From Alphaproteobacteria bacterium (GTDB lineage: Bacteria > Pseudomonadota > Alphaproteobacteria > Rs-D84), in contig SUUN01000001.1 of assembly GCA_015062495.1 (NCBI GenBank), forward strand, positions 97,069 through 161,068: a stretch of DNA of 64,000 nt. Direction: 5' to 3'. The position numbers and the translations under genes are program-made. The first letter of the stretch is position 1. Every line of letters starts with the position of its first letter. Below the pieces are notes generated by a model that was not told the DNA's origin, made no database searches, and was given only the letters and a program-made list of their open reading frames with translations. Shown here one piece after another: positions 479-38,507 of this stretch.

Positions 479-708
479 TGGATTTTTGTCATTTTTTGGT
501 GTAGTATATACTTTGACATGGCGATTGCTGTGTTGGGCGTCGAAACCCGTTTATGCTCAGTGCCTGTGAAGGTAGAAAATATCTCCAACCAATATGGTTG
601 GAGGGCGGTGAATATATTGAATAAGCCCGCTATTTTCTGAGCATTATAGTTTCGAACCTCCAACCACCCGCTTTGTCAGGTGGTTTTTTGTTTAAAAAAG
701 GATAAAAA

Positions 709-2708: not shown

Positions 2709-2975
2709 TTGCAGTATAAAACTTTTATTGGTACAATGACTGTTGTCAGCATGTGTTTTATGCTGGCGGGGTGTGGAAACCCTTTGTTGGCGTCGGAATA
2801 TTTGTTAATGGCGCAGATTGCGCTGTTTTTTATTGCGGCGGAAGTTACTCCTGACTGTTGGTCAGGAGGGTTGCGATATATATAAATAAGCACACAATTC
2901 CAACAATTGTTTCCAACCTCCTGGCCACCTTAGTTTTATGGTGGTTTTTTGAAATTGTACAAAAGGAGGAAGTCG
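2709..2975 (+). promoter_or_regulatory. Leader copy 0: sigma70 promoter (TTGCAG-N17-TACAAT, 2709-2737) plus a structured 5' leader related to the leaders at 10863 and 21274
   Basis: Shares CGGGGTGTG.AAACCC hairpin, mid-leader terminator (GCGCA-gat-TGCGC + T6), CTCCTGAC-loop-GTCAGGAG hairpin, conserved GGTTGCGATATATATAAATAAGCACACAATTC block, CAACCTCCTG anti-pairing segment and a second terminator (CCACC..GGTGG T6) before the RBS. Confidence 0.6.
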
Positions 2976-3430
2976 TGAAACAAAAACTAATATGTTTGAC
3001 AGTTGTGTTGTTGATGGTGTCTGATGCGGCGGCTGGTGTATATGGATGTGTTGCAGCCAGTGAACCGATACCAGCGCAATCAAGCAGATGTTCGGGAATG
3101 GACTGGAACTTGCTGAGCAGCAATTATCCATATTGGCAATATGGTGATGTTGTTGCTGGGTTTGCCAAGTGTGTTGGTGGTAGTAGTGTGACATGTACGT
3201 GTCGACAAATCTGGCCATATTTTAATGCAATGGGGGAATGGACTGCTAATGCCAGCAGTATAAACAGTCAATGTTCTGCGTCAACAACATCACTATCTGA
3301 TTGTTATACAAATTGTGCGCGTGCGTGCTTGGCGTCAATTGCGGATAATTATATTACCTGGGGTTATAATGATACTGGCAATCGATATGAATTACAAAAT
3401 ATATTGTCTTATTCCGTGTTTTATAAATAG
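2976..3430 (+). CDS. Small Cys-rich secreted protein (signal peptide), hypothetical
   Basis: GTG start 6 nt after AAGGAGG; N-terminal signal peptide MKQKLICLTVVLLMVSDAAAG; 12 Cys in the mature region; preceded by leader copy 0. Confidence 0.55.
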
Positions 3431-3447
3431 TAAATGGAGTTAATATA

Positions 3448-3846
3448 ATGAAAAAGTTGTTCGTTTTTTTTATGTTTTTGATGTCATGTGGAAATGCATT
3501 TTCGGTTGCGTGTTTGCAATATGATATTAGTGGTTGTTCCCAGTATTCGTCATCAAGTTATACAGACAGTACAGGTGTTACCGCAATGTATAAGTGCGGT
3601 GGTGGTGGCAATCGCGTTGATGTCGTTGGCATGTGTGGAACAGAATTGTCAGGTGGTGACATTGTTTACAACACAACAAATCTGAATGATAACAGCAGGT
3701 GTTTTTGTCGTATAACTTACCCTTTCTTGTCTGATTGGGTCGTTGCAGGCGGTGGGTGTTATAATCCATCCGCAGGAACAATAGGATGTGTTAGCGCTTG
3801 TGAAGCGTTGTTAAATTCTGGTACTAACTGGATATCGTATAAATAA
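3448..3846 (+). CDS. Small Cys-rich secreted protein, hypothetical
   Basis: 132 aa, signal peptide MKKLFVFFMFLMSCGNAFS, about 11 Cys; tandem with neighbours (17-nt gaps). Confidence 0.55.
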   Translation: MKKLFVFFMFLMSCGNAFSVACLQYDISGCSQYSSSSYTDSTGVTAMYKCGGGGNRVDVVGMCGTELSGGDIVYNTTNLNDNSRCFCRITYPFLSDWVVAGGGCYNPSAGTIGCVSACEALLNSGTNWISYK

Positions 3847-3856
3847 GGAGATTCTT

Positions 3857-4147
3857 ATGAAAAAAGTATTGCTTTTATGTTTTACTGTCTGTATGTTTGG
3901 CGCAAACGCAGCGGATTTACCAGCTTGCAGAGGGACGTTACAATTATGGCCAAATGTCGGGTATTATGAGTCATCTTGCCCCGCGGGAACGATTGAATTG
4001 GTTGTGGCGTCTTTGCCTTGTGAATATGCAAGCAGTGCTCAGACATGCGGCATGTTCGTTAATGATAATGGCGAAACAGATGTTTATATCGGAGAGGATG
4101 CTTCTGGCGTATTCGAAATATCTGGTTTTTGTGGACTGTCGCAGTAG
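3857..4147 (+). CDS. Small Cys-rich secreted protein, hypothetical
   Basis: 96 aa, AAGGAG RBS, signal peptide MKKVLLLCFTVCMFGANA, 7 Cys. Confidence 0.5.
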   Translation: MKKVLLLCFTVCMFGANAADLPACRGTLQLWPNVGYYESSCPAGTIELVVASLPCEYASSAQTCGMFVNDNGETDVYIGEDASGVFEISGFCGLSQ

Positions 4148-5442: not shown

Positions 5443-6315
5443 ATGACAGAAAATATTGAAAATACAGATGTTGTTGTGGACGCGCCGGTGGTTATGACGG
5501 CGGGGGAAATGTTGCGTAATGCGCGTACAACTGGGCGCAGAAAACGTGAAATTCCAACAATTTCTAAACAATTGTGTATTCGTGAGGAATTTTTAGAGGC
5601 CCTGGAAAATGGTCAGTATGATGTAATCCCAGAACCCGTTTATATCTTAGGTTTTGCACGCAACTATGCGATGGAGTTGGGATTAAATCCGGACGAAGTT
5701 GTTGAAAAAATCAAAAAAGAAATGGGGCTGGTTTCAGACTGTGTGTCCGATGATGATGATGATGTAAGTGCATGCGCAATGCCCAGTATCCAAGAAGAAA
5801 GTTGGGCCAAGGTTGCATTTGGCAAGGCGTATCAGTTTGTTTATCAGAACTGGATTTGGTTTGTGGGTGGCGTTATTGCAATTGCGTTGATTGTGTTTGC
5901 GGTTGTTATGCTGACACCGTCAAAGACAGATGAAGTTGTTACACCTGCCCAGGTGGTTGTGTCGGTTGAAGATATGGTCAAAGAACCAGAATACAAACAG
6001 CCAGTGCGTGAACGTTTTGGTACAGATAATCGCGCCACGGCGGAAATTATATTGCAGGCAAATAAAAAAACCGGCGAAGCGGGAACGTGGGTTGAAATCA
6101 AAGATGCGCGCGGTCGTACAGAAATTAGTCGTGTGTTGATGCCGGGCGATGTGTATTATGTGCCGGTCAAAGGGACGTACAAGGCGACATTTGGTAACGC
6201 CGGTGGAATTGATGTGTGGGTTGGTGGAAAATTAGCCCCCCAGGTTGGCCCAGAATATAAGAAAGTTTCTGGTGTGGAACTGGTGCCTGAAAAATTAATG
6301 AAAACAGGTAAATAA
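5443..6315 (+). CDS. RodZ-like helix-turn-helix cytoskeletal protein (XRE-HTH N-terminal domain, TM, DUF4115-like C-terminus)
   Basis: HTH with [11 protein letters not shown]...[18 protein letters not shown]; central TM; track start 5434 is TTG, ATG at 5443 has AGGGGA RBS. Confidence 0.6.
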
Positions 6316-6323
6316 AATATAGA

Positions 6324-6353
6324 AAGGGGCGAAAGGAATTTTCGCCCTTTGTA
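6324..6353 (+). terminator. Rho-independent terminator
   Basis: GGGGCGAAA-ggaa-TTTTCGCCC then TTTG. Confidence 0.55.
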
Positions 6354-6391
6354 TTGAAATTTGTTTTACGTAAACTATATATATTCGTACT

Positions 6392-9262
6392 ATGGCAGGA
6401 ATAATAAAAATTCGCGGGGCACGCGAAAATAATCTTAAAAATATCGATTTAGACATACCAAAAAATAAGTTGGTTGTCTTTACAGGCGTTTCCGGTTCGG
6501 GAAAATCGTCGTTGGCGTTTAATACCATTTATGCCGAAGGCCAGCGCAGATATGTCGAATCGCTGTCCAGTTATGCACGACAGTTCTTGGATATGCAGAA
6601 AAAGCCTGATGTGGATTTGATAGAAGGGTTGGCCCCAGCGATTTCAATTGAACAGAAAACAACGTCAAAAAATCCGCGATCGACCGTTGGTACTGTGACC
6701 GAGGTTTATGATTACCTGCGATTGTTGTGGGCACGTATTGGTGTGCCGCATTCGCCAGTGACGGGTAAACCCATTAAGTCACAGTCGGTCGCAGAAATGG
6801 TCGATTGGACTATGAAAATTCCGGCGGATACAAAAATATTTATAATGGCGCCATTGGTGCGCGAACGCAAAGGCGAATATAGAAAAGAATTGGCGTTCTT
6901 GGTCAAGCAGGGGTATCAACGCGCAATTATTGATGGGGAACTGGTGGATTTGTCAGCGGTTGCGCCATTGGATAAAAATAAAAAACATAATATTTTTGTA
7001 ATTGTTGATCGTTTGCAGATGCCACCGACTGATTCAGATACCGAAGAGTTTCGCTCGCGTTTATATGCGTCGTTTGAAGGGGCATTGCGTCTGGTGCCGG
7101 GGTCGGTGTTGGTGCGGCGTTTGGATACGAACGAAGATACACTGTATTCCCAAAATTATGCGTGCCCGGTCAGTGGGTTTACAGTACCAAAAATTGAACC
7201 GCGATTGTTTTCATTTAATGCGCCAATGGGGGCGTGTCAGAACTGTGACGGGTTGGGTGTGCAATTGAATATGTCACCGGATTTGGTCGTGCCAGATCCA
7301 TCAAAGTCAATCCTGGGCGGGGCGATTGCGCCGTGGTCGCGTGGCGGGATGTTAAGTCAGTTCGAACATTTGTTAGACGCGTTACATAAAAAATTCAAGA
7401 TTCCATTGTCTAAGCCATGGCATACATTGACATCAGAACAAAAAGATTTGGTTTTGTATGGCAGTGGTGATGAACCGATTAAGATAAACTGGAATGGGTT
7501 CGTTTATGAAAAACCATACGAAGGTGTTATCCCAAATATCGAACGGCGTTGGCGTGAATCTGATTCCGAGGCAATGCGCACGGAATTGGCAAAGTATCAA
7601 TCTGAAAAGCCGTGTCCAGTGTGTCATGGTAAACGACTGAATATCCATGCGTTGTGTGTGCGCATAAATGATGCGGATATTATGGATGTTTGTGATATGT
7701 CGGTGGATGATTGTTTAAATTGGTTCCGTGATTTGCCAAACCATTTGTCGCAAAAGGATAATGATATTGCACGAATCGTTCTGCGTGAAATAACAGACAG
7801 ATTATATTTCCTGCAAAACGTGGGGCTGGGGTATTTAACACTGTCGCGGATGGCGGGAACGTTGTCGGGGGGTGAAGCGCAACGAATTCGTTTGGCGTCG
7901 CAAATTGGCAGCGGTCTGTCGGGTGTTCTGTATGTGTTGGATGAACCGTCAATCGGATTGCATCAGGCGGATAATGATAAACTGTTGGAAACGTTGAAAA
8001 TGCTGCGCGACAAGGATAATACCGTTATCGTTGTGGAACATGACGAAGATGCGATGCGTGCGGCGGATTACTTGGTTGATATTGGTCGTGGCGCAGGTAT
8101 TAACGGTGGTAATGTTATCGCGCATGGTACACCAGCCCAGGTGATTAAGAACAAGGATTCTATAACAGGGCAATATTTATCAGGTGCGCGCAAAATTGAA
8201 GTGCCGACAAAACGTCGCGCTGGTAATGGTAAATCGATTGTCATAGAAGGGGCGCGTGGAAATAACCTGAAAAATGTGACAGTTGAATTTCCGTTGGGGA
8301 AATTTATCGCACTGACAGGTGTGTCGGGGTCAGGTAAATCGACGTTGTTGCTGAATACATTATATCCAGCTTTAATGCGTGCGCTGTATAATTCTAAAAT
8401 GGAAACAGGGACGCACGATATTATTCGTGGGATGGAAAATGTAGACAAGGTTGTCGATATCGATCAATCCCCAATTGGGCGCAGCCCACGCAGTAATCCA
8501 GCAACATATACCGGTGTGTTTGGTGATATTCGTGATTTCTTTGCGGGATTGCCAGATGCCAAGGCGCGCGGGTATGGGCCGGGACGATTTTCATTTAACG
8601 TCAAGGGTGGGCGATGTGAGGCGTGCCAGGGTGATGGCCAGATTAAAATTGAAATGAATTTCTTGGCCGATGTGTATGTTGAATGTGATTGTTGCCGTGG
8701 CAGTCGTTATAACGAAGAAACATTGGCGGTTAAGTACAAGGGCAAATCAATCGCAGATGTTTTGAATATGACGGTTGAAGAAGCGTACAGATTCTTTGTT
8801 AATGTGCCAAAAATTGCACGTAAATTGGAATTGTTAAAGCGTGTTGGATTGGATTATATTAAATTGGGACAAAGTTCGTTGGATTTGTCCGGGGGCGAAG
8901 CACAGCGTATAAAACTGTCCAAAGAATTGGCGGCACGCAGTACAGGCGAAACAATCTATATTTTGGATGAACCAACGACGGGTTTGCACTTTGAGGATAT
9001 CAAGATGCTGTTGTCTGTTTTGCATGAATTGGTCGAGCAGGGCAATACAGTTATCGTTATTGAACATAATCTGGAAGTAATTAAAACCGCAGACTGGATT
9101 GTTGATTTGGGGCCGGTAGGTGGCGCAGGTGGTGGTCGTGTTATTGCAACTGGTACGCCAGAGCAGGTGGCGGATGTGGCAGAATCGCAGACCGGAAAAT
9201 ATTTACAGCGGTATCTGGACAAACCAGCAAAAAATAGTAAAATAAATGCGAAAAAGGAGTAG
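6392..9262 (+). CDS. uvrA: Excinuclease ABC subunit A
   Basis: 956 aa; two ABC ATPase modules ([12 protein letters not shown] / [19 protein letters not shown] x2), zinc-finger Cys clusters. Confidence 0.97.
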
Positions 9263-9264
9263 TT

Positions 9265-9792
9265 ATGTTTGGTTTTGGTAAAAAGAAAGACAAAGCGCAG
9301 GTAAACAGTAATATTACTGATGCAGATATCAAGGCGGCGGAAAAGGACCTGGGGGTGGATAAAATGCCGGCCGGAATGAAAGAAACCGCCCAGCGCATGA
9401 TGAGCGGTGAATTTGATATGAATGATATGTTGGCCCAATTAAAGCAAATCAAAAAAATGAGTAATTTTAGCGGTCTGTTGAAAATGGTGCCGGGAATGAG
9501 TGGCGCAGTGTCTGCGATGAAGGAAAAGATTAAAGATGGCAGTGTTGATGCCCAGATTAAAATACTGGAAGCAATGACACCGGCTGAACGCGCAGAACCA
9601 GAAAAAGTTTTTGCCAATGCCAAGGCGCGTATCGCAGAAACCGCAAAATGTACCGTGCGTGATGTGGAACATATCATCAAACAGTACACCAAGATGAAGC
9701 AACAGATGGCAATGATTCAACGTATGGGTGGTATGGAGGCCGTAATGCAGAAAATGCAGCAACAGCCCGGTCCAAAACCACAGGGGTTGTAA
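9265..9792 (+). CDS. Standalone SRP54/Ffh M-domain-like protein (no NG domain)
   Basis: AAGGAG RBS; FDMNDMLAQLKQIKKMSNFSGLLKMVPGMSG and IKILEAMTPAERAEPE...RIAETAK...IIKQYTKMKQQMAMIQRM align with the Ffh M domain; Met-rich; the SRKRRIA.GSG RNA-binding motif is degenerate. Confidence 0.55.
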   Translation: MFGFGKKKDKAQVNSNITDADIKAAEKDLGVDKMPAGMKETAQRMMSGEFDMNDMLAQLKQIKKMSNFSGLLKMVPGMSGAVSAMKEKIKDGSVDAQIKILEAMTPAERAEPEKVFANAKARIAETAKCTVRDVEHIIKQYTKMKQQMAMIQRMGGMEAVMQKMQQQPGPKPQGL

Positions 9793-9843
9793 TGTCTTTT
9801 TTAGAGAGAGGGTGTAGTACACAAAAAACTCAAAGGATATAAG

Positions 9844-10113
9844 ATGAAGATAAATTGGAAAAAATTGTTTGATTGGAGCATCGAAGCCGTTGGTGGCCCA
9901 GGCGAAACATATGATAAAAATGGTCGTGTGCGTGGGTACAAAGTGGTTGTAAAGTACACACATCATGGTTCAGATGAATTATTTTTTGGCATGGAAGATG
10001 AACATTTGTGGACACAATATGGCAGTCCAGAAAATGCCGCAAAGCAGACGGTGAAGTACTATCAGGATAAAATTGCCAAACAGCGTAAAGTACACTTAGC
10101 ACGTCAAAAATAA
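9844..10113 (+). CDS. Hypothetical protein
   Basis: 89-aa ORF with AAGGA RBS; no recognisable motifs. Confidence 0.4.
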   Translation: MKINWKKLFDWSIEAVGGPGETYDKNGRVRGYKVVVKYTHHGSDELFFGMEDEHLWTQYGSPENAAKQTVKYYQDKIAKQRKVHLARQK

Positions 10114-10772
10114 TGAAAATAACCAATAAAAAGATTGCTAGTAAAAAATCATCGGTCGCCTGGTTGCAACGCCAGGCGGCAGATCCATATGTTGCACGGG
10201 CGCAAAAAGAAGGTTATCGGGCGCGTGCGGCATATAAACTGATTGAAATGAACGAAAAGTTCAAGTTTCTGCGCAATGGCCAGGTGGTGGTTGACCTGGG
10301 GGCGGCACCGGGGTCGTGGTCGCAATATATTGCGCGAACATATCCAAAATCGCGTGTGTTTGCGATGGATTTGCTGGAAATTTCACCAATCGTCGGTGTG
10401 GAAACGTATCAGGGCGACTTTACATCTGATGCGGCATTGCGTTGGCTGGAAGACAAGTTGGGATTACAACCCGATGAAATTGGCGCGGGCACTGCAGATG
10501 TGATTGTGTCGGATATGGCACCTAATACAGTGGGACATAAAAAAACCGACCATATTCGTCAGATGGTGTTGCTGGAATATGCGTTTGATTTTGCGTTGCG
10601 TGCATTAAAACCGGGTGGAACATTTGTGTGCAAGTCATTTACAGGTGGCACAACCCAGGATTTGCTGAAACAAATCAAGGAACATTTTGAATATGTTCAC
10701 CATATAAAACCGCCGTCTTCGCGCAAGGACAGCGTGGAAATGTTTATAGTTGCGCTTGGGTTTCGTGGATAA
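10113..10772 (+). CDS. rlmE: 23S rRNA (uridine2552-2'-O)-methyltransferase RlmE/FtsJ
   Basis: SAM-binding VVDLGAAPGSWSQ, DMAPN, K..D catalytic tetrad context; 219 aa. Confidence 0.9.
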   Translation: MKITNKKIASKKSSVAWLQRQAADPYVARAQKEGYRARAAYKLIEMNEKFKFLRNGQVVVDLGAAPGSWSQYIARTYPKSRVFAMDLLEISPIVGVETYQGDFTSDAALRWLEDKLGLQPDEIGAGTADVIVSDMAPNTVGHKKTDHIRQMVLLEYAFDFALRALKPGGTFVCKSFTGGTTQDLLKQIKEHFEYVHHIKPPSSRKDSVEMFIVALGFRG

Positions 10773-10862
10773 CATCCCCCGTTTGGGGGATTTTTTCAAA
10801 GTGCAAATAGCAAAGCGCAAAGAGCAATTAATATTTAGATAAATAAAAGTTTATCTAAGTAA

Positions 10863-11142
10863 TTGAATTTATAACAACTATGGCGTATAATGAATGTGTC
10901 GTCGGGTGTTCCGATGACGGGGTGTGAGAACCCGTTCCTTTGCGTCTGAGAAATGTTATGGACGCGCCAAAGATGGCGTGTTTTTTGTCAGATGAAAAAT
11001 AAAAAAACTCCTGATACCCCATTGGGTCAGGAGGGTTGCGATATATATAAATAAGCACACAATTCAAAGGATTGTTCTCAACCTCCTGACCGTCAAAAAA
11101 ATGACGGTTTTTGTTTAACAAAAAAATCAGGAGATTGAACAA
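10863..11142 (+). promoter_or_regulatory. Leader copy 1: promoter TTGAAT-N17-TATAAT (10863-10891) plus a ~250-nt structured leader with two terminators and mutually exclusive pairings
   Basis: Hairpin ACGGG-GTGTGAGAA-CCCGT; terminator CGCGCC-aaagat-GGCGTG+T6 (10962-10986); hairpin CTCCTGAT..GTCAGGAG (11009-11033); GGTCAGGAGGGTTG can pair with CAACCTCCTGACC (11079-11091), which overlaps terminator 2 (GACCGTCA..TGACGGTTTTT, 11088-11112); SD CAGGAGAT then ATG. Confidence 0.65.
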
Positions 11143-11670
11143 ATGAGAAATAAACATATTTTTATTTGTGCCCTGTGTGCGACGTTTGTTGCGCCCGTGG
11201 CACATGGGGCAAGTTGTTTTTATGATGTTGATTGCGAAAGTACAAGTCCATCTGGGGGAATTACGATTGGGCTTACTTGTCCCACGATTACGGTTGGACT
11301 GAAAACGTATGTGGGTATCATGAAGCATTCGTTCACGCACACATGCAACTTTGTGTCTGGGTCGTTGTATGGTTCGTGTGGTCAATTAATTAATGCGGAT
11401 GTCCGTTATGCGTGCTGTCCAGGGTATTATGGCGAATGTAGCGATAATACCGATATTACGACGTGCAGTTGTTCACGATGTCCGCAGTTTAGCGATGCGT
11501 CTGGAACGGTTTATGGAACGACGGAGGGACCGGTGGCAGGAAACGCAAGCAGTTATTCTGGCAATGCCCCGTCCAAGACAGATTGTTATGTTCCAGCCGA
11601 CAAGGGATACGAGGATTCAGATGGGACAGGAACATTTGAATTTACGTCAAAATGTTATTATTCCAATTAA
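11143..11670 (+). CDS. Cys-rich secreted protein, paralog A (C-terminal ...TCSCSRCP...CY...GTGTFEFTSKCYYSN module)
   Basis: Signal peptide MRNKHIFICALCATFVAPVAHG; 16 Cys; C-terminal module shared with the 21552 and 29339 proteins. Confidence 0.6.
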   Translation: MRNKHIFICALCATFVAPVAHGASCFYDVDCESTSPSGGITIGLTCPTITVGLKTYVGIMKHSFTHTCNFVSGSLYGSCGQLINADVRYACCPGYYGECSDNTDITTCSCSRCPQFSDASGTVYGTTEGPVAGNASSYSGNAPSKTDCYVPADKGYEDSDGTGTFEFTSKCYYSN

Positions 11671-12083: not shown

Positions 12084-12121
12084 TCGGTTGACAATGTTGT
12101 AGTTTGTGCTATATTTATAGT

Positions 12122-13063
12122 ATGATAAAAAACACTGACACTTTGATTAATGATATAAATGCGCCACGTGTGCATCACCGTGCCTTGACGGGGTATTTGC
12201 GGCGCAATTGGTCACGCAATCCGAATGAGTTAAAGCGAATTGTTTATAATACAGATGTGTCACAATATCTGGGGGCGTTGCCACCACAGTTGCGGGCGCG
12301 TGTTCCGCGGGAACAGATTGCGACCGTTACAGCACAGTTTCGCGACAAACTGGAAAACTTTTTAATCGACAATATTGTTGATTTGCGGGCAATGGAAACA
12401 GATCGGGTTTATGATTTGTCGGAAATTGGCGATTTGTTTGGCACGCAGTGTAGTCTGGTGGCGCGCGGTATTAATGTATATGGGGTAAATCCGTGGTCGG
12501 GGTTGTTGGGGTTTGTGTGCAAAATGTCGTTCCCGGAAATTGGCGCGCATTATGCGTTGAAACTGTATTATAACCATATTCCAGAAGTTACGCATTATAG
12601 CCACGGTCCGTGGTTTGAAGTTGCGACCGCATTGGCCACTAACAAGGCTGAGCCGCATGATAACGTGCCAATGTATATGGCATCCCTGCGGTACGAGAAA
12701 TATTTGCTTAGTCAATGGGCCGGTGACAGGGATGATGGTGTGCCGCAACGCGATAATAAATTTAAGGTCTTTTGTACGCGTACTGATGAAGACGAGTCCA
12801 GAAATCGTCGTGGTGGGCGTCGAATTGACTGGGGCGAAACATATATGACAAATTATGGTGGTTTGTCGTATCATGGGCGTAAAATATACCGCCAGGCACT
12901 GAATATGGACGAAGTAGGGCTGCGTAAATCAATTGTACGTGCGCGTAATAATTTTGAAAAACGTGACGTGGCGAATGCATTGGAACTGGCCGGGTTGATT
13001 GCGTGGTATGATGATAATCAGCCGTTATCCCAGTTCCTGTATCGCGTTCAAAATCAACGCTAG
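12122..13063 (+). CDS. Hypothetical protein
   Basis: Long ORF (track start 12104); a TTGACA-N16-TATATT promoter-like site at 12087-12116 suggests the ATG at 12122 (MIKNTD) is the start; no motifs recognised. Confidence 0.45.
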   Translation: MIKNTDTLINDINAPRVHHRALTGYLRRNWSRNPNELKRIVYNTDVSQYLGALPPQLRARVPREQIATVTAQFRDKLENFLIDNIVDLRAMETDRVYDLSEIGDLFGTQCSLVARGINVYGVNPWSGLLGFVCKMSFPEIGAHYALKLYYNHIPEVTHYSHGPWFEVATALATNKAEPHDNVPMYMASLRYEKYLLSQWAGDRDDGVPQRDNKFKVFCTRTDEDESRNRRGGRRIDWGETYMTNYGGLSYHGRKIYRQALNMDEVGLRKSIVRARNNFEKRDVANALELAGLIAWYDDNQPLSQFLYRVQNQR

Positions 13064-13066: not shown

Positions 13067-13903
13067 TTATTCGCCAACGACCAATCCAACCAATCGTTTG
13101 ACGATTTGGGCATTTTGTGCATCGCCAGATGGGGCGTATTCCACGAATTCAATGCTGGTTGCATCGTCAAATTCACGAATCAGGTATTCGGCGGCGTCTG
13201 GGGTTATGCCGTCGGGCGCGGGGACAAGGACATCGCCAAAATACTTTGGGTCAATCGCATCAAAATCAAACGATACAACAAATGGGCGATTGCCAATTTT
13301 ATGTCGGATTTCTGCCACTGCATTACGCAAATCGTCGCCTGTTTTCAATTGTTCGGGCGTGCGTGTGTATATGTTATTTGCGCGAACAAATTCGATTTCA
13401 GCGGGTTCATATGAACGTGTGCCCAGATAGAATACCCGGTCGGGTGTCAGGGCAGGTTTGGTTTTTAACAAAGACAACCAGCGTTCATCACCAGTACCCA
13501 TCAATGCGCGAACGTTCGTGCCGTGTGGCGCGCCAGATGCCTGGGCCTGGGCGGATTGGGGTGTGTGAATATCCAAGTGTGCATCAATATACACCAGGCA
13601 CAGGTCGTTATTTGTCGTACGGTCGGCCAATGCGGCAAAATGCCCATAGTTAACCGAGTGGTCGCCGCCAATCATAATATGTCGCTCGTATGGTGTGGCG
13701 GCATAGATTTTTTGCTGAATCTTGTAATTTTCGCCAAAGCGATCGCGGGCGCATTCGTCCGCATCGAACGCGTCGGCAACAACCGTTGTCCAGTCTGCGT
13801 TTGGAAACATTTCTTTGATTGCAGCCGGGGCCAGCGCAGGCCCGCCGTTAATCGCAGTGCGCAGGCATCCGCGACCGTATTCGATACCCATTATATTATT
13901 CAC
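13067..13903 (-). CDS. Arginase/agmatinase/formiminoglutamase-family metallohydrolase
   Basis: Mn-binding motifs GGDHSV, DAHLDIHT, SFDFDAIDP; 278 aa. Confidence 0.8.
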   Translation of the reverse strand: MNNIMGIEYGRGCLRTAINGGPALAPAAIKEMFPNADWTTVVADAFDADECARDRFGENYKIQQKIYAATPYERHIMIGGDHSVNYGHFAALADRTTNNDLCLVYIDAHLDIHTPQSAQAQASGAPHGTNVRALMGTGDERWLSLLKTKPALTPDRVFYLGTRSYEPAEIEFVRANNIYTRTPEQLKTGDDLRNAVAEIRHKIGNRPFVVSFDFDAIDPKYFGDVLVPAPDGITPDAAEYLIREFDDATSIEFVEYAPSGDAQNAQIVKRLVGLVVGE

Positions 13904-14834
13904 GATAAGACTCCACTATACTTTCGGCGGCGTTTTTTAATCTTTGTAATGATTGCTCGTACGTGGCACAATCGCGTGCAATTTCAGAGCGGTATGCATC
14001 GCGCAGGTTGCCCGCCATATAATAACAACCCTGCAGATGTTGGACACAATATTCGTGCCCGGTGTTATATGCGTTTTGACCACGGACACGACTTTCCATA
14101 TCTGCCCAGTTGATATCAAGGGCCGCGTCCAGGTTTGTCCATGAATTTTCATTGGTGTATTTGCCAACTGTTGACATCCAGTATTCGTCCATTTCGGCGT
14201 CCGTCCATGTGTTTGTTGAACGCATTGTTAAAATCTGGGTAATCAAATTTTCAATCGCAGGTTGGTATTCCGAATCGATTTGGGATAATTTCGAACTGCA
14301 ATAGCAACGGTTGTACGCGGTGTTTTCGCGTTCGCAATACTGGTTCATACATTCTGTGTAATCGGACAGGCATCGCGTGGATGATACGCGTTCTGTGGCG
14401 GTGCTTGCGGTCTGGGTTGTCGCAGAACGATTTGTGTATGTTGTTGGATGACTGCGATTTGTTGCGGAGGTTGAAACCACAGTTTGCGTCTGGTTACCAC
14501 GCAGATTGCCGCGACGCGCCACAACGCGGCGTGCGTTTGGTGTGGATGCAGTACTTGATGCAGTTGCCGAACGTGCGGTGCTTTTTGCGGTTCGTGGTAC
14601 AACGCGTCGCGCCCCAGACAGTGGTGTTGTTTTAACGACTGTGTCAATCAGGTTTGAATTCTGGGTCGGTGTTACGCCGGGGTTCAGGTTTGTACGCATC
14701 TGGTTATTCATATATGGGTACATGTAATTGTAGTTATAACCAGTTGTGTTGGTCATGCGCGCGTCGCGTGTTGCGGCGGACGCGTTGAAAACCAGGGCGA
14801 AAAATGCAAAAAAACAGAATATTCTTTTTCTCAT
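13896..14834 (-). CDS. Secreted Ser/Thr-rich, Cys-containing hypothetical protein
   Basis: Track ORF extends to 15014 but that extension is antisense to tRNA-Pro; the internal ATG (MRKRIFCFFAFFALVFNASA signal peptide) at 14834 is taken as the start. Confidence 0.5.
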   Translation of the reverse strand: MRKRIFCFFAFFALVFNASAATRDARMTNTTGYNYNYMYPYMNNQMRTNLNPGVTPTQNSNLIDTVVKTTPLSGARRVVPRTAKSTARSATASSTASTPNARRVVARRGNLRGNQTQTVVSTSATNRSHPTTYTNRSATTQTASTATERVSSTRCLSDYTECMNQYCERENTAYNRCYCSSKLSQIDSEYQPAIENLITQILTMRSTNTWTDAEMDEYWMSTVGKYTNENSWTNLDAALDINWADMESRVRGQNAYNTGHEYCVQHLQGCYYMAGNLRDAYRSEIARDCATYEQSLQRLKNAAESIVESYRE

Positions 14835-14917
14835 TACTGTAATGATAGAAAAATTGATATAAAAATAAAAGAAAAATTTGCAATCAGAAAAAATGCTGTT
14901 ATAATAGCCCATGTTTT

Positions 14918-14994
14918 CGGGGTGTAGCTCAGTCTGGTAGAGTGCTTGGTTTGGGACCAAGATGTCGAAGGTTCGAATCCTTTCGCCCCGACCA
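14918..14994 (+). tRNA. tRNA-Pro, anticodon TGG
   Basis: Acceptor CGGGGTG/CGCCCCG, anticodon arm CTTGG-TTTGGGA-CCAAG (anticodon TGG), T-loop GTTCGAATC, 3' ACCA. Confidence 0.85.
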
Positions 14995-15197
14995 GAAAAT
15001 TCAAACCGTCGCATTTGCGGCGGTTTTAATTTTCTGTTTGGAACGCGTGGATTCGAACGACAAAATTCTTTTGTCGGGTTCGAATGTTACCCTCGTCCGT
15101 CGCATAAATGCGCCGCGACTGCGGGGCATTCGTGACGATTTCGCTGTGCTTTGCGTGCAAAATCTACTCATTGTCTCCCCGAGGCATGAGATAAACA

Positions 15198-21273: not shown

Positions 21274-21551
21274 TTGAATTTGTGGCAACTATGGCGTATA
21301 ATTGTTGTGTCGTCGGGTGTTCCGGTGATGGGGTGTCGAAACCCGTTCCTTTGCGTCTGAGAAAAGAGTTTGAATGCGCCGATGCTGGGCGTGTTTTATC
21401 AGATGAAAAATAACAAACTCCTGATGCCAATTGGGTCAGGAGGGTTGCGATATATATAAATAAGCACACAATTCAAAGGATTGTTTCGAACCTCCTGACC
21501 GTCAAATGATTGGCGGTTTTTTGTTTAACAAAAAATCAGGAGATAGAACAA
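21274..21551 (+). promoter_or_regulatory. Leader copy 2: promoter TTGAAT-N17-TATAAT (21274-21302) plus a structured leader homologous to 10863-11142
   Basis: Same architecture as copy 1 with compensatory substitutions: ATGGG..CCCGT, GCGCC..GGCGT+T-run, CTCCTGAT..GTCAGGAG, conserved AT-rich block, CGAACCTCCTGACC, second hairpin plus T6, SD CAGGAGAT. Confidence 0.65.
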
Positions 21552-22259: not shown

Positions 22260-23372
22260 TTAAAATGCGTATTTGATATTCATGCCACCAATCCATCCGT
22301 CGCGGGCGCCGTCGCGGCGACCAAAGTGCGCAGATATGTTAAAGTGGTTTACATATTTTTCCAGCGATATGCCATATTCGCGATAGTTGTCGGTTTCAAG
22401 TGCGTCGGCGACAATATCATTGATGTGTGTGTCGCCACCGTTGTCAAATATCATTACATATTTGGCGTTCAGTGCGCCGAACCATCCGTTTGCGATGTGC
22501 TTAATCGCGCGCAGGGTGGGGGTGACTTCGAACATGCTGAATAATGCGTCGTTCTTTAAAATATCGCCGGATGCAGATGTGTAATCTTCGCCACGAATCC
22601 ATGTGTATCCCAGGTGTATGCCGGGCTGTAATGTAAATGTGCCGTCCAACGCAAAATCGTATGTGATTTCTGTTGCAGCGCCAACCCAGAAATTTGAATG
22701 TTCGTCGGTGCCGAATATTGTGTCGGTGGTGTTATTTAATACGCCACCGTCAACTGTTGCAAACAGTCCCCAATTGCCGAATACGTTGCCGTTATAGATG
22801 CCAAAGTGACCGCCCTGGGAATCGATTTGGATTTCGTTGTTTTGTTGGTCGCCGTCGATGAATCCGGCGTACATTCCCCATTTAGATACGCCACCCGCGA
22901 ATTCAGACAGGCCGCCTGCGATGCCGAACATAAATGTGTTTATATTGGAATCTAAGTGCGCGAAATTGTCAAATACAGCGTCGTCGCCCATATGTTGCCA
23001 GTTCAACCAAATGCTGTTCAGTGCGGCATCGGCATTGTAAATGTCGCCGCCACTGCGACCGGCACTGCCGTCGTCGTTATATTCGCCGTACATCGGTGCG
23101 GTGCCGTACATTGGGGCACGGCCGTATGTGGTGGCAGGATTTTCACCGCGTTGGGCGGAAATTGATTTGGCGCGTTGTTTCTGTGCGCCCATGTTACCGC
23201 GCATAGATCCTGCAAATGAAGAAATTGCAGTTTGTGTAATTGTGTGTTGAATTGATGCGATGTTGTGTGCCGTAATTGCGTTTGCATAGGCGTGTGTGTT
23301 TGTCGCGGCGTGTGCACCAGATGTGCCCAACAATGACAATAAAGAAATTGTAAAAAGGGTTGTGTGTTTCAT
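22260..23372 (-). CDS. Outer-membrane beta-barrel protein (autotransporter-like / OMP; C-terminal ...NIKYAF)
   Basis: Signal peptide MKHTTLFTISLLSLLGTSGAHA; alternating amphipathic strands and a terminal aromatic residue typical of BAM substrates. Confidence 0.5.
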   Translation of the reverse strand: MKHTTLFTISLLSLLGTSGAHAATNTHAYANAITAHNIASIQHTITQTAISSFAGSMRGNMGAQKQRAKSISAQRGENPATTYGRAPMYGTAPMYGEYNDDGSAGRSGGDIYNADAALNSIWLNWQHMGDDAVFDNFAHLDSNINTFMFGIAGGLSEFAGGVSKWGMYAGFIDGDQQNNEIQIDSQGGHFGIYNGNVFGNWGLFATVDGGVLNNTTDTIFGTDEHSNFWVGAATEITYDFALDGTFTLQPGIHLGYTWIRGEDYTSASGDILKNDALFSMFEVTPTLRAIKHIANGWFGALNAKYVMIFDNGGDTHINDIVADALETDNYREYGISLEKYVNHFNISAHFGRRDGARDGWIGGMNIKYAF

Positions 23373-26273: not shown

Positions 26274-26948
26274 TTATTCGTATGCTTGTGTGTCTTCGCG
26301 AACTTTAATGTTTTGAAATACTTTATCAAGAATTTTAAATTGTTCTGGTGTAGTGTCGGCATAGTGCGCAGGCATTAGAAATTTTCGTATTTTGATACGT
26401 GTTATGCCACTTGATATGTGTTGTTTGCGATAACGCCAAAGAGTGCGGATGCCATTTTCAATAATTAACAGGTCTATGTCACTATAACCAAATTTTTTGC
26501 GCAGTTTGTCTATGGCAATTTTTGCTTGTTTATTAGAAACATGCCTGTCAGTCATGTAAACTAATAATACTTTTTCGTGGGCTGCGAACACGTCGCGAAA
26601 GCGTTTAATTTTTGGTGCGTATGTTTCGACTGCGATTCTGAACCCTTCGACAAATGATAAATCTTTTGGGAAGTCGTGTGCAAATACCAATTTGGTTTTT
26701 GAATCCCAGAATCTGTAGTTGTGCCATTTTTCAATGCGTTCATATTTAATTTTCTGCAAACGTTCCGCAACTAAAAAATCTTGAAAATCATCCAGAATTA
26801 TTCGAATGCGCCCTTCGAATGTTCCGCGTTTAACCCAATCGAATGGAAATTTACGTCCGATAGGTCGTAAATTATAGTGTTTTAGGTTTTGGGTGCAGTT
26901 GCATCTATCGCCCAGTGGGATAATTTTATCGTATATAATGTTTCTCAT
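26274..26948 (-). CDS. DUF1796-family protein (putative papain-like peptidase fold)
   Basis: N-terminal IIPLGDRCNCTQNLK...PFDW pattern typical of DUF1796; 224 aa. Confidence 0.5.
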   Translation of the reverse strand: MRNIIYDKIIPLGDRCNCTQNLKHYNLRPIGRKFPFDWVKRGTFEGRIRIILDDFQDFLVAERLQKIKYERIEKWHNYRFWDSKTKLVFAHDFPKDLSFVEGFRIAVETYAPKIKRFRDVFAAHEKVLLVYMTDRHVSNKQAKIAIDKLRKKFGYSDIDLLIIENGIRTLWRYRKQHISSGITRIKIRKFLMPAHYADTTPEQFKILDKVFQNIKVREDTQAYE

Positions 26949-26955: not shown

Positions 26956-27831
26956 TTATAGTTGTGTTTCTTTTATAAATCCTATTTCAGTTAAGCCATT
27001 AACTAAAACCTCGGCAAAGAATGCGGTCATCTGACAATAGAACCAGAAATCGTGTGCATGAATCTGTAAAAAACCTATTTTAAGCCATGGTTTCATGTGG
27101 CCAGTGTAATGTCGTACCACAATTTCGTTTTGTGGACAGTGTGTAATGAGATTTGATTTTACATTGAATCGCACATCCAATGGTTGATAATTTTTATCAA
27201 AGGCTTTGTTTAACACGTCTTGGTCGTTAAAGTACCTGGTTGTGGCTGTCATGCGTTCTGCGGTAATTAATTTGGGCAACATATCATTTTTGCGCCATTC
27301 GTTGCAATCTATTAGCATTACACCAGAATTAAAATATAGGTGTTCTGGTGACAGTAATGCAGCCGTGTATTGATTGTTTTTTTTGATTGGATTTTCATAT
27401 ACATTTGGGTCAGGTACCGCGCCAATAACATAGCCGTTTAAATCTTGGGCGTATAGGTCTGAGATGTCTTGCATTATAATTGTGTCGCAATCTAAATATA
27501 TAACTTTGCCCATTTCTGGTTTTAGGTCTGGAATCAGTAATCGCGCAAAACATGCGGTCGTCAGATAATTGCGCAGTTGTATATAGCCAAACTGGGTATT
27601 GGAATCTACGGGAATAAATTCAATTGAAAAATTAGAGAATTTTTCATGTAGCATTTCCATTTTTTTGCGATTCATTGGTGTCATGTCGCAATCTAGAATA
27701 TAAAATTCTATAAATGCGTTCGTATTGAACAGCAGGCTGGCCATTGATACGGTTGCGATCGGTGCGTACTTGTTGTCGCATGCATAAAATACAGGAATAT
27801 GATTTAATTTTTTTGTTTTAGTAGTGTCCAT
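26956..27831 (-). CDS. Glycosyltransferase family 8 (LPS alpha-1,3/1,2-glycosyltransferase-like)
   Basis: DNKY...A.SL.FN, YLDCDTII (DxD), YFNSGVMLIDCNEWR, H..G..KPW motifs. Confidence 0.85.
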   Translation of the reverse strand: MDTTKTKKLNHIPVFYACDNKYAPIATVSMASLLFNTNAFIEFYILDCDMTPMNRKKMEMLHEKFSNFSIEFIPVDSNTQFGYIQLRNYLTTACFARLLIPDLKPEMGKVIYLDCDTIIMQDISDLYAQDLNGYVIGAVPDPNVYENPIKKNNQYTAALLSPEHLYFNSGVMLIDCNEWRKNDMLPKLITAERMTATTRYFNDQDVLNKAFDKNYQPLDVRFNVKSNLITHCPQNEIVVRHYTGHMKPWLKIGFLQIHAHDFWFYCQMTAFFAEVLVNGLTEIGFIKETQL

Positions 27832-32972: not shown

Positions 32973-33290
32973 TTATCGCAGGCCCTTGGCGCGACAGCAT
33001 GCGGATGCCGCAGCCTTCCAGTCTGAGAATTGTTTTGATGGGTTGCGCAAATCACGCCATGGTTGCCAACCATTGCAACGCTTTTTCGTGCCAGTGCCAC
33101 TGCATTTAGCATAGCGGCGCAAGGAACAGGTTTGATTGGAAACACGTCCGGTGTCGGTTGTGCATTTTACAACCACGTTTTGGTTTTTTGCGTCGTTTTG
33201 CCCCAGTTCCTTGGACGATATAACCTGGTACGCGTTGGCGGCGCATGCAGTTGTTAAAACGACAATTAATGACAGCAATATTTTTTTCAT
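32973..33290 (-). CDS. Small secreted Cys-rich protein, hypothetical
   Basis: 105 aa, signal peptide MKKILLSLIVVLTTACAANA, 8 Cys. Confidence 0.45.
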   Translation of the reverse strand: MKKILLSLIVVLTTACAANAYQVISSKELGQNDAKNQNVVVKCTTDTGRVSNQTCSLRRYAKCSGTGTKKRCNGWQPWRDLRNPSKQFSDWKAAASACCRAKGLR

Positions 33291-37565: not shown

Positions 37566-38485
37566 TTTGGAAATGCCGCTATTATTCTATCTATTAACTG
37601 TTGACGTGCTGGGTCGACTGTGTCAGATCCATCAGACGAGCCGGGTGTGCCAGTGCCAGAGTCTTTTTTTTTACAACGTTCGTCGTCGGGATGTTTTTTA
37701 CAGTATTCATCCAAACTCAGATTGTTATAATCGCGTATTCGTGCCAGTTTTTCTTGGCGGCGCAGGTATGCCTCTATATTTTCAACTTCGATTTCTTTGT
37801 ATGCGCGGGCGTCTTTGAACGGTGCATAGCCGGCCGCCGCGTTTTCCATGCGTTCGGTAAATGATAAATCTGCATATGTCGTTGGAAATTCGGTTGTGCG
37901 AACCAATTTTGGTTGTTTTACACCGTTGGCCGCCTGTAAATCTTTTAATTCCTGTTTCCGGTCCAGAATTTCCATTTGCCATTCTTGTAATTTAGGGCTG
38001 AGTGGGTTTTGCATTTCAAACTTTGAACCGTCGCCCATTGTGCCCATGCCCGTTGTTGTTGGGAATGCAGCACCCGCCGATGGGGCGGCAATGGCATTTG
38101 TTTTCAAGTATTGTTCAAACGCGGTGTCAATGTATCCACCACAGGAAGATGCATAATTGCCATTTGGCATTTGGGATAACTGCAACATGATTGATGGACG
38201 AATGTCGGACAATTGCGTTGTTATGCATTTGTTGCGGTTTGCACATTCCGCCGCCACCAGGTATGATACCACATTTTGACAGTCGGACGTTTCAACAGAC
38301 GGGCCGGTTGCATAGACCGCAGTTGGAAAACGCTGATTATATGGGCCATTGGGATTCCAAAATGGGTTTGATGAATAATCCTGGACGTTTTGAATAACGC
38401 CATATTTGCTCATTACCGTGTTGGCATGGGCAAATGACGCAAAAAGCGCAGAAAATATAATAAATAAGTTGAACTTCATTCTCAT
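37562..38485 (-). CDS. Secreted hypothetical protein; shares an N-terminal-region module with the GH108 protein
   Basis: Signal peptide MRMKFNLFIIFSALFASFAHA; segment AAAGYAPF...AY....E..EAYLRR...YC.KHPDDERC parallels AAAGYQPF...AY...E..E.YMLR...YCAKYPLDATRC in the 33352 protein. Confidence 0.5.
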   Translation of the reverse strand: MRMKFNLFIIFSALFASFAHANTVMSKYGVIQNVQDYSSNPFWNPNGPYNQRFPTAVYATGPSVETSDCQNVVSYLVAAECANRNKCITTQLSDIRPSIMLQLSQMPNGNYASSCGGYIDTAFEQYLKTNAIAAPSAGAAFPTTTGMGTMGDGSKFEMQNPLSPKLQEWQMEILDRKQELKDLQAANGVKQPKLVRTTEFPTTYADLSFTERMENAAAGYAPFKDARAYKEIEVENIEAYLRRQEKLARIRDYNNLSLDEYCKKHPDDERCKKKDSGTGTPGSSDGSDTVDPARQQLIDRIIAAFPK

Positions 38486-38507
38486 ATCCGGGTCCCTGTT
38501 GTGGTAA

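Follow-up and report, generated by a model that had tools for sequence, protein, structure and literature searches.

A candidate riboswitch-like attenuator RNA upstream of genes for exported cysteine-rich proteins in gut Alphaproteobacteria of the Rs-D84 lineage

The vsp, vlp, and vsa genes of Mycoplasma encode families of variable surface lipoproteins with a conserved 5' region and a poly-A or inversion switch. The chlamydial cysteine-rich outer-membrane complex (OmcA/OmcB) provides a functional precedent for an envelope lattice. On the RNA side, riboswitch-type attenuators, such as the cyclic di-GMP classes, control adhesin and surface-protein genes, and Alphaproteobacteria carry multi-copy, short, trans-acting small RNAs (sRNAs) of the cuckoo/alpha-r14 type, which display an anti-Shine-Dalgarno (anti-SD) motif in hairpin loops and are included in Rfam. 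Here, we analyzed a 64,000-nucleotide (nt) stretch of an Alphaproteobacteria bacterium of the Rs-D84 lineage (GCA_015062495.1, contig SUUN01000001.1, positions 97,069 to 161,068), hereafter called the window. It encodes six cysteine-rich proteins at four loci, namely a cassette of P1, P2, and P3, and the separate genes for P4, P5, and P6. A structured leader RNA of ~230 nt precedes three of these loci. We lean toward the reading that the exported cysteine-rich proteins form a co-regulated secretome under a new riboswitch-like attenuator.

The locus is like the Mycoplasma systems in that a host-associated bacterium with a reduced genome has many paralogs that vary in their exposed part and have almost the same upstream region and one type of signal peptide. 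It differs in that a covarying RNA structure and its terminator make up the conserved upstream region, and in that the proteins are not lipoproteins and have a conserved part that is C-terminal and cysteine-rich; furthermore, no recombinase was seen. With OmcA/OmcB, the locus shares exported cysteine-rich proteins in a partner-dependent bacterium and likely intermolecular disulfides. However, there is no sequence or fold similarity, and the present family is far more expanded and has variable heads. The leader resembles the cuckoo/alpha-r14 sRNAs in its occurrence in Alphaproteobacteria, in several copies per genome, and in its CCUCC-type anti-SD motifs. Unlike these sRNAs, it lies in cis and is fused to the ribosome-binding site (RBS) of the downstream gene, and an Rfam search of the P5 leader gave no match to them. 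Bacteria of the order Rs-D84, which includes Candidatus (Ca.) Enterousia, are uncultured and widespread in animal and human guts; their genomes are under 1 Mb and lack biosynthetic and respiratory pathways, and an obligate symbiotic or parasitic dependence on other cells has been inferred for them (PMC12306168).

The leader was noticed through an annotation artifact. The same peptide appeared in spurious opposite-strand open reading frames (ORFs), which pointed to a repeat upstream of P1 and P4. An identical 38-nt core is found at 2862–2899, 11027–11064, and 21436–21473, where none would be expected by chance, and the three regions upstream of P1, P4, and P5 align over ~240 nt. This promoter and structured RNA, common to the P1 cassette, P4, and P5, had been missed in a first-pass annotation of the window. 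Using nhmmer and hmmalign to find and align copies, we obtained 93 copies in 82 loci, most of which end exactly at the start codon of a gene from the family to which P4 and P5 belong (the module family, see below) in other genomes. In nearly every copy, a promoter of the form TTGnnn-N17-TATAAT lies ~12 nt upstream of the RNA, and the element is therefore a 5' untranslated region (UTR). We considered and rejected the 38-nt core as the promoter itself, as the −35 and −10 boxes precede the whole element and the core corresponds to helix Hc plus segment B of the RNA. See Table 1 for the coordinates of all leader copies, their sub-elements, and the six genes.

Next, we determined a consensus structure from 51 full-length copies. 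RNAalifold gave a long-range helix between the 5' end and the stretch immediately ahead of the terminator, with up to four Watson-Crick pair types at a position (for example, GC 23, AU 13, CG 8, and UA 7). After inspection of the covarying columns, we defined 11 helices. The 5' part consists of the H0 hairpin followed by hairpin S1, the loop of which pairs with a segment ~200 nt downstream to form an H-type pseudoknot (PK). A long-range helix, S2, closes a multiloop containing an optional insert (the RNA element P2/Ha), the hairpin A-B (CUCCUGA/UCAGGAG), and helix Hc. Hairpin Hd comes after the multiloop, and the leader ends in an intrinsic terminator, which Ha, present in the long form of the leader, resembles. 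One RNAalifold pairing, that of columns 18–21 with 237–240, was replaced by S1, as columns 19/34 and 20/33 covary whereas 20/238 breaks.

The structure is well supported by covariation. Over its 54 pairs, 93.4% of cells have standard pairing versus 82.7% in shuffled alignments, 35 pairs show changes on both sides versus 21.7, and 287 cells show such changes versus 78; none of 500 shuffles scored as high on any of these measures. Controls in which the structure was slid along the alignment were 38–49% paired. For H0, whose stem draws on the 6 nt that precede the alignment, pairing reaches 92% and as many as five pair types occur, and the terminator stem and U-run are 99.7% paired. Held-out copies from metagenome contigs (65 distinct copies, aligned by a sequence hidden Markov model [HMM] only) were 96.9% paired versus ~40% for slid controls, with 311 compensatory cells versus 44–50. 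Compensatory changes can be seen directly in the window copies, where the PK reads TCGAAA/TTTCGA, TGAGAA/TTCTCA, and TGGAAA/TTTCCA, and S2 reads CCTTTG/CAAAGG or TGTTGG/CCAACA. Single-sequence folding gave z = −4.8 for the P5 leader and z = −5.4 for a minimal copy at 520–708.

These data also bear on whether the element could be a repeat acting as DNA, such as a MITE-like (miniature inverted-repeat transposable element) sequence, a mobile cassette that brings its own promoter, or a recombination site for switching between family genes. Antigenic-variation systems do include multigene surface families that have a conserved 5' region, and the core is 100% identical in the three window copies. 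Leader and gene also seem to move together. An ortholog of P5 with 74% identity (GCA_054298855.1, L082 9753–10678) has FtsK, SurA, TIM, and GrpE as neighbors, so that synteny with the window is not conserved, and it has kept its leader, which indicates that the two relocate as a unit. Nonetheless, we find a DNA-level repeat scarcely credible. Paired positions vary freely while complementarity is kept, and G-U pairs are confined to the gene strand. All copies have one orientation relative to the gene, with the promoter upstream and a terminator with its U-run downstream, and we saw no flanking target-site duplications and no transposase or recombinase genes among the neighbors. The leader is a structured cis-regulatory 5' UTR supported by covariation, always on the gene strand and ending at the start codon. 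A search of Rfam 15 with the whole window at gathering scores returned only 3 tRNAs, and the P5 leader searched at E values up to 10 gave chance-level matches far below gathering scores, so that no Rfam family matched, T-box, c-di-GMP-I/II, ROSE, and the alphaproteobacterial sRNAs included. The searchable literature contained nothing on this RNA or on the protein families. The ~230-nt leader is previously undescribed.

Judging from its complementary segments, the leader has the architecture of a riboswitch or attenuator. Segment B (UCAGGAGGG) would pair either with segment A, as a local hairpin, or with segment C (CCUCCUGA), and the 3' end of C would double as the 5' strand of the terminator. 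When A-B and the pseudoknotted domain are formed, C would be free, the terminator would form, and transcription would stop, leaving the gene off. When B-C is formed instead, it would act as an antiterminator, blocking the terminator and leaving the RBS accessible and the gene on. Segments A and C, both anti-SD-like, could also mask the RBS, as in the minimum free energy (MFE) fold of the P5 leader. The alternative B-C helix (columns 149–158 with 237–247) is 92–99.7% paired, has 3 compensatory pairs, and is incompatible with both A-B and the terminator stem. Possible effectors for shifting the balance include small molecules, proteins, RNAs, and the ribosome. With this switch, the organism would turn production of an entire set of exported disulfide-rich proteins on or off in concert.

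In several respects, this arrangement is that of riboswitch-type attenuators: a conserved, pseudoknotted, promoter-proximal 5' UTR of ~230 nt, a terminator 5' strand shared with an alternative helix, and many copies per genome before genes for surface or secreted proteins. The leader differs from the described classes by its lack of an Rfam family, by three mutually complementary SD/anti-SD-like segments, and by the optional terminator-like Ha, and ligand binding is putative here. The large conserved core makes a small-molecule ligand plausible. We put forward only tentatively that the leader is a new riboswitch class, with a second messenger or a partner- or host-derived metabolite as its ligand, that switches on the whole disulfide-rich, adhesin-like secretome plus a few regulators in partner-dependent gut Alphaproteobacteria. 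If true, a single RNA sensor would govern the contact or attachment program of an uncultured episymbiont or parasite lineage.

Further copies of the leader bear on what the effector might be. The minimal copy in the window is followed by a 72-amino-acid (aa) cysteine-rich membrane ORF (709–927), which overlaps the start of an Mrr-like gene (928–2076, + strand) encoding 382 aa with a C-terminal Mrr-type restriction-endonuclease domain (Pfam Mrr_cat). A divergent copy, the helices of which were read by eye, keeps both alternative pairings with A/B/C of CCCCGAC/GUCGGGG/CACCCCGA and an RBS of GGGG. The gene behind it (58766–59689) encodes a non-secreted repeat protein. At other loci (L060 1520–1700, − strand; L025 10263–10500, − strand; L007, L068, L040, and L054), minimal leaders precede XRE-like helix-turn-helix (HTH) proteins of 70–126 aa. 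These leaders have their own TTGCAA/TATAAT promoter, S1, PK, S2, A-B, Hc, and the terminator, and lack P2/Ha. The XRE-like proteins may be regulators in the same circuit.

It is possible, then, that a protein, a trans-acting RNA, the ribosome, or temperature controls the attenuator in place of a small molecule, although we would not press this reading. An RNA-binding antiterminator, or the XRE-like proteins behind the minimal copies, are conceivable agents that we name with the same reserve. Segment B imitates a Shine-Dalgarno sequence and A and C imitate its complement, the four elements A, B, C, and RBS change together to a GGGG/CCCC type in the divergent copy, and small HTH regulators are encoded behind some leader copies. 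PK and S2 are free to vary in sequence, and so act as scaffolds. On the other hand, the pseudoknotted domain contains many invariant unpaired bases, which are more typical of ligand-binding aptamers, and no candidate gene for an RNA-binding protein is linked to the copies.

We then turned to the proteins. The first-pass annotation had listed six cysteine-rich genes with Sec signals, and all six ORFs are indeed present. Each has a basic N-terminus, then a hydrophobic stretch and an AXA-like site, and cysteine makes up 5.4–9.3% of the residues. Two of the listed positions needed correction, as P1 starts at 2975 rather than 2976, and 29339 is the end of P6, which lies on the minus strand. A crude scan of the whole window for further cysteine-rich, signal-bearing ORFs added only 709–927 and 32973–33290. 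The number of cysteines in the mature part is odd in all six proteins (Table 1), in 106 of 116 module-family members, and in 8 of 8 members of the P6 family. An odd count, with one conserved unpaired cysteine, suggests an intermolecular disulfide or another covalent link.

The six proteins had been taken for one expanded family, a grouping that we rejected after all-versus-all BLASTP and Smith-Waterman tests with 500 shuffles. Only P4 and P5 are related in these tests, with 37% identity over the C-terminal 87 aa, BLASTP E values of 1e-10 to 5e-15, and a shuffle z of 10.5. All other pairs are at chance level (for example, z = 1.5 for P5–P6 and z = 0.2 for P1–P2). The C-terminal pattern attributed to P4, P5, and P6 is accordingly shared by the first two, and its pairwise match to P6 is not significant. 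By sequence comparison, the six proteins fall into at least three groups.

P5 is typical of the module family. Behind the signal peptide of these proteins, the N-terminal half diverges rapidly, and the C-terminal ~110 aa (residues 117–225 of P5) make up a strongly conserved module with 12 conserved cysteines that ends in ...D.tG.Y.YT.nCYYsN. Family members are on average 24% identical pairwise over the N-terminal half and 60% identical over the module, and the family alignment has 19 conserved cysteine columns. The module consensus is C.GC.NCTSDT.WSA.GTGYEKK.TRTC.CNTC...T.YRCAAGYYGSSTNGTSGCTRCPSSGGVYGTSAAGST.ITSCYIPSGT..SD.TG...YT.NCYY.N, with YRCAAGYYG...C..CP...C[YF]...D.tG.Y.YT.nCYY as the profile motif. 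P4 is a divergent member in which approximately the last 87 aa are conserved, up to the end CYYSN. Searched against all window ORFs, the family HMM matched P5 and P4 only. The module profile matched P5 at 1e-70 and P4, itself part of the model, at E = 1.4e-18, and gave no match for P1 or P2. The ~70 C-terminal aa are also found alone in small proteins and tandemly repeated in larger ones. In some members (P0044, P0051, and members at locus L038), a saposin-like N-terminal region with a CECC motif precedes the module, and PF03489 is recorded for two.

The family proved to be lineage-specific and duplicated, as had been proposed. Among 5.8 billion proteins, there are 259 homologs of P5, all ~200 aa long and none with a Pfam domain; those with names come from metagenome-assembled genomes (MAGs) labeled Alphaproteobacteria or Rickettsiales bacterium, almost all of them uncultured gut bacteria. 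A scan of one genome per GTDB species gave 91 matches in 32 assemblies, including Ca. Enterousia, from human, mouse, roe deer, goat, rabbit, chicken, and termite guts. These 32 assemblies contain 117 family ORFs, often clustered, with at least 15 copies in the richest assembly; the copy numbers were counted in retrieved flanks only and are lower bounds. Housekeeping genes such as rho, ssb, leuS, and tlyA are conserved neighbors across loci, and no secretion, immunity, or Dsb genes are among the conserved neighbors. Family genes and leader copies are also present on contigs labeled Bacteroides fragilis (L063, CAVGNU01) and Muribaculaceae (L030, CAZJGX01), which are most likely mis-binned alphaproteobacterial contigs. 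Locus L038 has two nearly identical frameshifted family copies (2979–3713, − strand, and 5629–6318, + strand). At five loci outside the window, including this one (6344–11413, 1689 aa), family genes adjoin very large autotransporter-like proteins. In the window, a short autotransporter of 370 aa with a PF03797 beta-domain (22260–23372, − strand) is convergent with P5.

Searches against known families and folds were negative. Pfam and NCBIfam gave no significant match for the six window proteins or the 116 module-family members. Weak, non-significant matches of single members were to Giardia VSP (PF03302, E = 0.03), EGF_laminin (E = 0.05), SapB_2, and prokaryotic metallothionein (E = 0.07). Profile searches against Protein Data Bank (PDB) sequences returned nothing other than antibody CDR3 strings and Sushi domains (E values no lower than 0.25). 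An AlphaFold2 model of P5 based on 116 aligned sequences has a predicted local distance difference test (pLDDT) score of 86 overall and >90 across the module, and consists of five stacked beta-hairpins. Foldseek found no match for this model in PDB or BFVD, and a P2 model of moderate confidence (pLDDT 64) had no fold match in PDB. The knottin or defensin fold that had been envisaged was not recovered for either model, nor was any other known fold. Likewise, no homology to a known housekeeping periplasmic family emerged from Pfam, NCBIfam, PDB sequences, or Foldseek.

The motif C..G[YF]Y...C..CP...GATSIT.C presumably resembles GCC2_GCC3/ephrin-receptor-like repeats. The Pfam test was negative (no match to PF07699 at E values up to 1 in the six proteins and 116 members), and we treat this as a resemblance only. 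At the motif level (C-x2-G-[YF]-Y ... C-x2-C-P ... G-A-T-S-I-T-x-C), there is a likeness to Ephrin_rec_like/GCC2_GCC3 (PF07699), Giardia VSP, laminin EGF, and Sushi/CCP repeats. The motif lies on beta-hairpins, and the unit is tandemly repeated in some family members. The difference from these eukaryote-type repeats is that no sequence match is significant and Foldseek found nothing. As modeled, the module is a new disulfide-rich beta-hairpin module without detectable structural relatives.

It had been suggested that the conserved CYYS tail is a sorting or modification signal, which our data do not favor. The tail lies inside the folded module (pLDDT ~90), and the P4/P5-family proteins end 2–4 residues past the conserved cysteine, with no hydrophobic, transmembrane, or charged tail after it. 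Furthermore, there was no Pfam or NCBIfam match to the C-terminal sorting signals LPXTG, PEP-CTERM, GlyGly-CTERM, or T9SS CTD. Since the CYYS cysteine is one of the 12 in the module, in a confident fold and with no tail after it, it looks structural rather than part of a sorting signal.

Instead of forming disulfides, the cysteines could coordinate metal, as they do in zinc ribbons and metallothioneins. Several CxxC pairs do sit on beta-hairpin knuckles, one member has the weak metallothionein match noted above, and the lineage is anaerobic and reported to lack respiratory chains, which calls Dsb-type re-oxidation into question (PMC12306168). We judge metal binding very improbable, however. 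The proteins carry export signals, there are no conserved His or Asp partners, and over 110 aa the spacing of the cysteines is preserved along with aromatic and Gly residues, a pattern seen in disulfide-rich modules of extracellular proteins.

P6 belongs to a family of its own with 10 representative clusters, a conserved N-terminus (LWWR..G.F), and the tail LYDATGRFIY...C.CFEDG...CS. It has no HMM match to the module family, and an hhalign comparison of the two profiles gave 4% probability, which is not significant, though the alignment is in register. A protein at locus L041 (5701–6468) connects the two groups. It is a clear module-family member (z = 21.8 versus P5) that occupies the same slot as P6, being divergent from leuS and followed by GT2 and GT8 genes, and it ends in TGTFAYKCNCAYDGTDSC, a P6-type tail. 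Its z score is 5.2 versus the P6-family protein P0129 and 2.9 versus P6. Because this protein combines the P6 slot with a P6-type tail, P6 is probably a divergent branch of the module family. Directly downstream of P6 (26274–29318, − strand) are genes for a GT2/radical-SAM fusion (27804–29318), a GT8 protein (26956–27831), and a DUF1796 papain-like protein (26274–26948). The order family gene-GT2-GT8, divergent from leuS, is also found in L041 (6497–8403). The LeuRS of the window matches leuS of Enterousia and relatives (BLAST, E below 1e-20), which, together with the sources of the homologs, would place the organism in or near the Rs-D84/Ca. Enterousia group.

The remaining three genes had been described as a tandem array of one family. 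Our comparisons resolve this array into a cassette of different proteins, as P1, P2, and P3 are not detectable paralogs of one another (z = 0.2 to 3.0). The three-gene cassette recurs in L001, L044, L056, and L071. In the 1-kb contig L001, the tail of a P1 homolog is followed by homologs of P2 (45%) and P3 (39% identity, E = 1e-12). P2 has only two database homologs, with 99% and 45% identity, and the single database match of P1 is itself, in a MAG labeled Alphaproteobacteria bacterium. The order P1-P2-P3 is kept across genera while the sequences diverge fast.

P2 contains the motif CFCRITYPF..W..C..C..AC, and an iterative search from it recovered proteins of L071 (Ca. Enterousia), L044 (a mouse gut MAG), and L056 at 1e-22 to 1e-37. 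These proteins have a domain with the pattern ..YCWCRM..PA.S.W....C...C...C...F...F.NL, which we call CWCR, and a CWCR profile was built from the P2, L001, L071, L044, and L056 proteins. The L071, L044, and L056 loci have one or two CWCR genes and then a gene for a small protein with CP.G...D.tG.YE...C. P1 has a weakly CWCR-like motif, TCTCRQIWP...W...C..NCARAC, and shares C.CR..P..W..C...C...C and the first cassette position with CWCR genes. It scored z = 4.7 versus the CWCR protein L056_11209, and the CWCR HMM gave no P1 match. P3 ends in EDASGVFEISGFC and has a weak relationship (shuffle z = 3.7) to the small proteins L071_93 and L044_113. L071_93, from Enterousia, scored z = 7.9 versus the P5 module by Smith-Waterman, and jackhmmer from L071_93 did not reach the module family. 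A P3-like profile of nine proteins matched the module profile with 86% probability (E = 5e-6), as opposed to only 6% for P3 and L001 alone and no module match for P3 by itself. On this basis, P3 is probably a minimal version of the C-terminal module. We read the cassette as a conserved operon that encodes two proteins of the CWCR type plus one with a minimal module, with P2 a CWCR-family protein and P1 and P3 probable members of their groups.

To look at the regulon independently of the protein families, we scanned metagenome contigs with a leader-only pattern. This gave 77 HMM-verified leaders with 70 downstream ORFs. Module-family proteins account for 44 of the 70, CWCR proteins for 4, other cysteine-rich secreted proteins (mostly P3-like) for 8, and other signal-bearing proteins for 10; the last 4 were scored cytoplasmic, two of them secreted-looking. 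Approximately 90% of the leader-linked ORFs in this sample encode signal-peptide proteins. Therefore, the leader marks a regulon dominated by exported cysteine-rich proteins. In the window, common leader control unites three of the four loci, namely the P1–P3 cassette, P4, and P5.

What these proteins do can be approached from their architecture. A variable head on a conserved module, up to 15 or more paralogs per genome, and an unpaired cysteine fit partner-interaction proteins. From these sequence features, a role in partner interaction, at the surface or after secretion, is most likely, and disulfides may link the proteins into oligomers or to the envelope. The first-pass annotation had offered host interaction together with bacteriocin or effector roles, and interaction is plausible for a lineage inferred to be partner-dependent (PMC12306168). 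A bacteriocin is unlikely.

The odd cysteine count could also mean that they are structural envelope components, for instance a disulfide-cross-linked lattice in the periplasm or outer membrane, which we regard as a rather unlikely alternative. Its conservation implies an intermolecular bond, the family genes occupy conserved slots between housekeeping genes (for example, rho, ssb, leuS, and tlyA), and the module is under strong purifying selection. Against a lattice, the N-terminal halves diverge fast, the copy number ranges from 1 to 15 or more between genomes, and the P1 and P2 families are near-orphans. A switchable leader would also be unusual for constitutive structural proteins.

Bacteriocin-like toxins or interbacterial effectors, in turn, would be small, secreted, cysteine-rich, and lineage-specific as these proteins are, and some leaders precede defense-like genes, including the Mrr-like nuclease and a helicase. 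We still consider this role very unlikely. No immunity, ABC-export, or modification genes are near the family genes, the leader peptides are of the Sec type with AXA-like sites rather than double-glycine, and there were no PADLOC or toxin-type Pfam matches. Up to 15 paralogs share one conserved module. The radical-SAM gene beside P6, which could have suggested peptide modification, is a GT2 glycosyltransferase fusion in a glycan-type cluster.

Several observations weigh against our overall reading of a co-regulated, exported, disulfide-rich secretome under a riboswitch-like attenuator. On the RNA side, the on/off logic is read from complementarity, and energy-based folds of single sequences do not give one unique switch. 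The covariation of B-C is only modest because its sequence is nearly invariant. Leaders also stand before non-secreted genes (58766–59689 and the XRE-like HTH genes), so the regulon is not purely a secretome. The loci of the GTDB scan were chosen by family gene, which biases the association of leader and family there, and the leader-only sample covers just the majority B/C sequence type. On the protein side, export was called by eye and from the hydropathy of the N-termini, the family membership of P6, P3, and P1 comes from bridging sequences, profiles, and synteny, and no leader copy was found upstream of P6. Finally, disulfide formation would still need an explanation in a lineage reported to be without respiratory chains.

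Table 1. Positions in the window of the leader copies, their sub-elements, and the six cysteine-rich proteins
Feature	Positions	Strand	Details
Leader of P1–P3 cassette	2709–2974	+	−35 TTGCAG 2709–2714; −10 TACAAT 2732–2737
P1-leader sub-elements			S1 2769–2782; pseudoknot strands 2774–2779/2910–2915; terminator 2923–2953; RBS 2966–2972
P1-leader switch segments			A 2848–2854; B 2860–2869; C 2917–2926
Leader of P4	10863–11142	+	−35 10863–10868; −10 10886–10891
P4-leader sub-elements			pseudoknot strands 10925–10930/11075–11080; terminator 11088–11116; RBS 11128–11134
P4-leader switch segments			A 11008–11014; B 11025–11034; C 11082–11091
Leader of P5	21274–21551	+	−35 TTGAAT 21274–21279; −10 TATAAT 21297–21302
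P5-leader sub-elements			S1 21331–21344; pseudoknot 21336–21341/21484–21489; S2 21348–21353/21474–21479; terminator 21497–21525; RBS 21537–21543
P5-leader switch segments			A 21418–21424; B 21434–21443; C 21491–21500
Minimal leader copy	520–708	+	no P2/Ha insert; A/B/C type CUCCAACC / GGUUGGAGGG / CCUCCAACC
Divergent leader copy	58511–58765	+	−35 58511–58516; −10 TATAAT 58533–58538; nhmmer E 7e-4
P1	2975–3430	+	151 aa; GTG start preceded by AGGAGG; exported (predicted); 9 Cys in mature part; cassette gene 1
P2	3448–3846	+	132 aa; exported (predicted); 9 Cys in mature part
P3	3857–4147	+	96 aa; exported (predicted); 5 Cys in mature part; cassette gene 3
P4	11143–11670	+	175 aa; exported (predicted); 13 Cys in mature part
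P5	21552–22229	+	225 aa; exported (predicted); 19 Cys in mature part
P6	29339–30235	−	298 aa; exported (predicted); 15 Cys in mature part; 29339 is the 3' end

We also surveyed the rest of the window (1–64000). GC skew is strongly positive throughout (~0.02–0.37 per 2 kb, with a monotonic rise of the cumulative curve), and the + strand carries most of the long ORFs. Such a strong strand bias probably means that the window lies within a single replichore. Behind a gene for a type IV prepilin peptidase (Peptidase_A24; 38508–38978, − strand), the same strand encodes three proteins (307, 495, and 563 aa) that lack a Pfam match. Next come a GH108 muramidase-domain protein (33352–34440, − strand) and the small lipoprotein-like ORF 32973–33290, which has a weak EexN match. 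The region 33352–38978 may be a divergent Tad/T2SS-like export locus, and such a locus would bear on how the cysteine-rich proteins cross the outer membrane. We rejected a type IV secretion system in the window, as 43.6–49 kb holds housekeeping genes and 33–39 kb holds the prepilin peptidase, GH108, and proteins without a family. An AbiEii-type nucleotidyltransferase toxin (42282–43220, − strand) and a small upstream partner ORF (43231–43602) form a probable type IV toxin-antitoxin or abortive-infection pair. Three other ORFs have no Pfam match: 12104–13063 (+ strand, 319 aa), 13896–15014 (− strand, 372 aa), and a membrane ORF of 84 aa just after P4 (11705–11959).

Dependent microbes with an expanded cysteine-rich secretome are familiar, as are leaders of the attenuator or riboswitch type. 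New here are the particular examples, and support for the RNA is unusually strong. These genomes devote ~1% or more of their genes to one cysteine-rich exported family, and one elaborate leader RNA precedes that family plus two further exported families. With more than 150 copies, the pseudoknotted, covarying motif, absent from Rfam, is an orphan riboswitch or attenuator candidate for ligand screening. The leader is also a simple sequence marker for regulon members in metagenomes, and together these results define a candidate interaction secretome for the Rs-D84 lineage.

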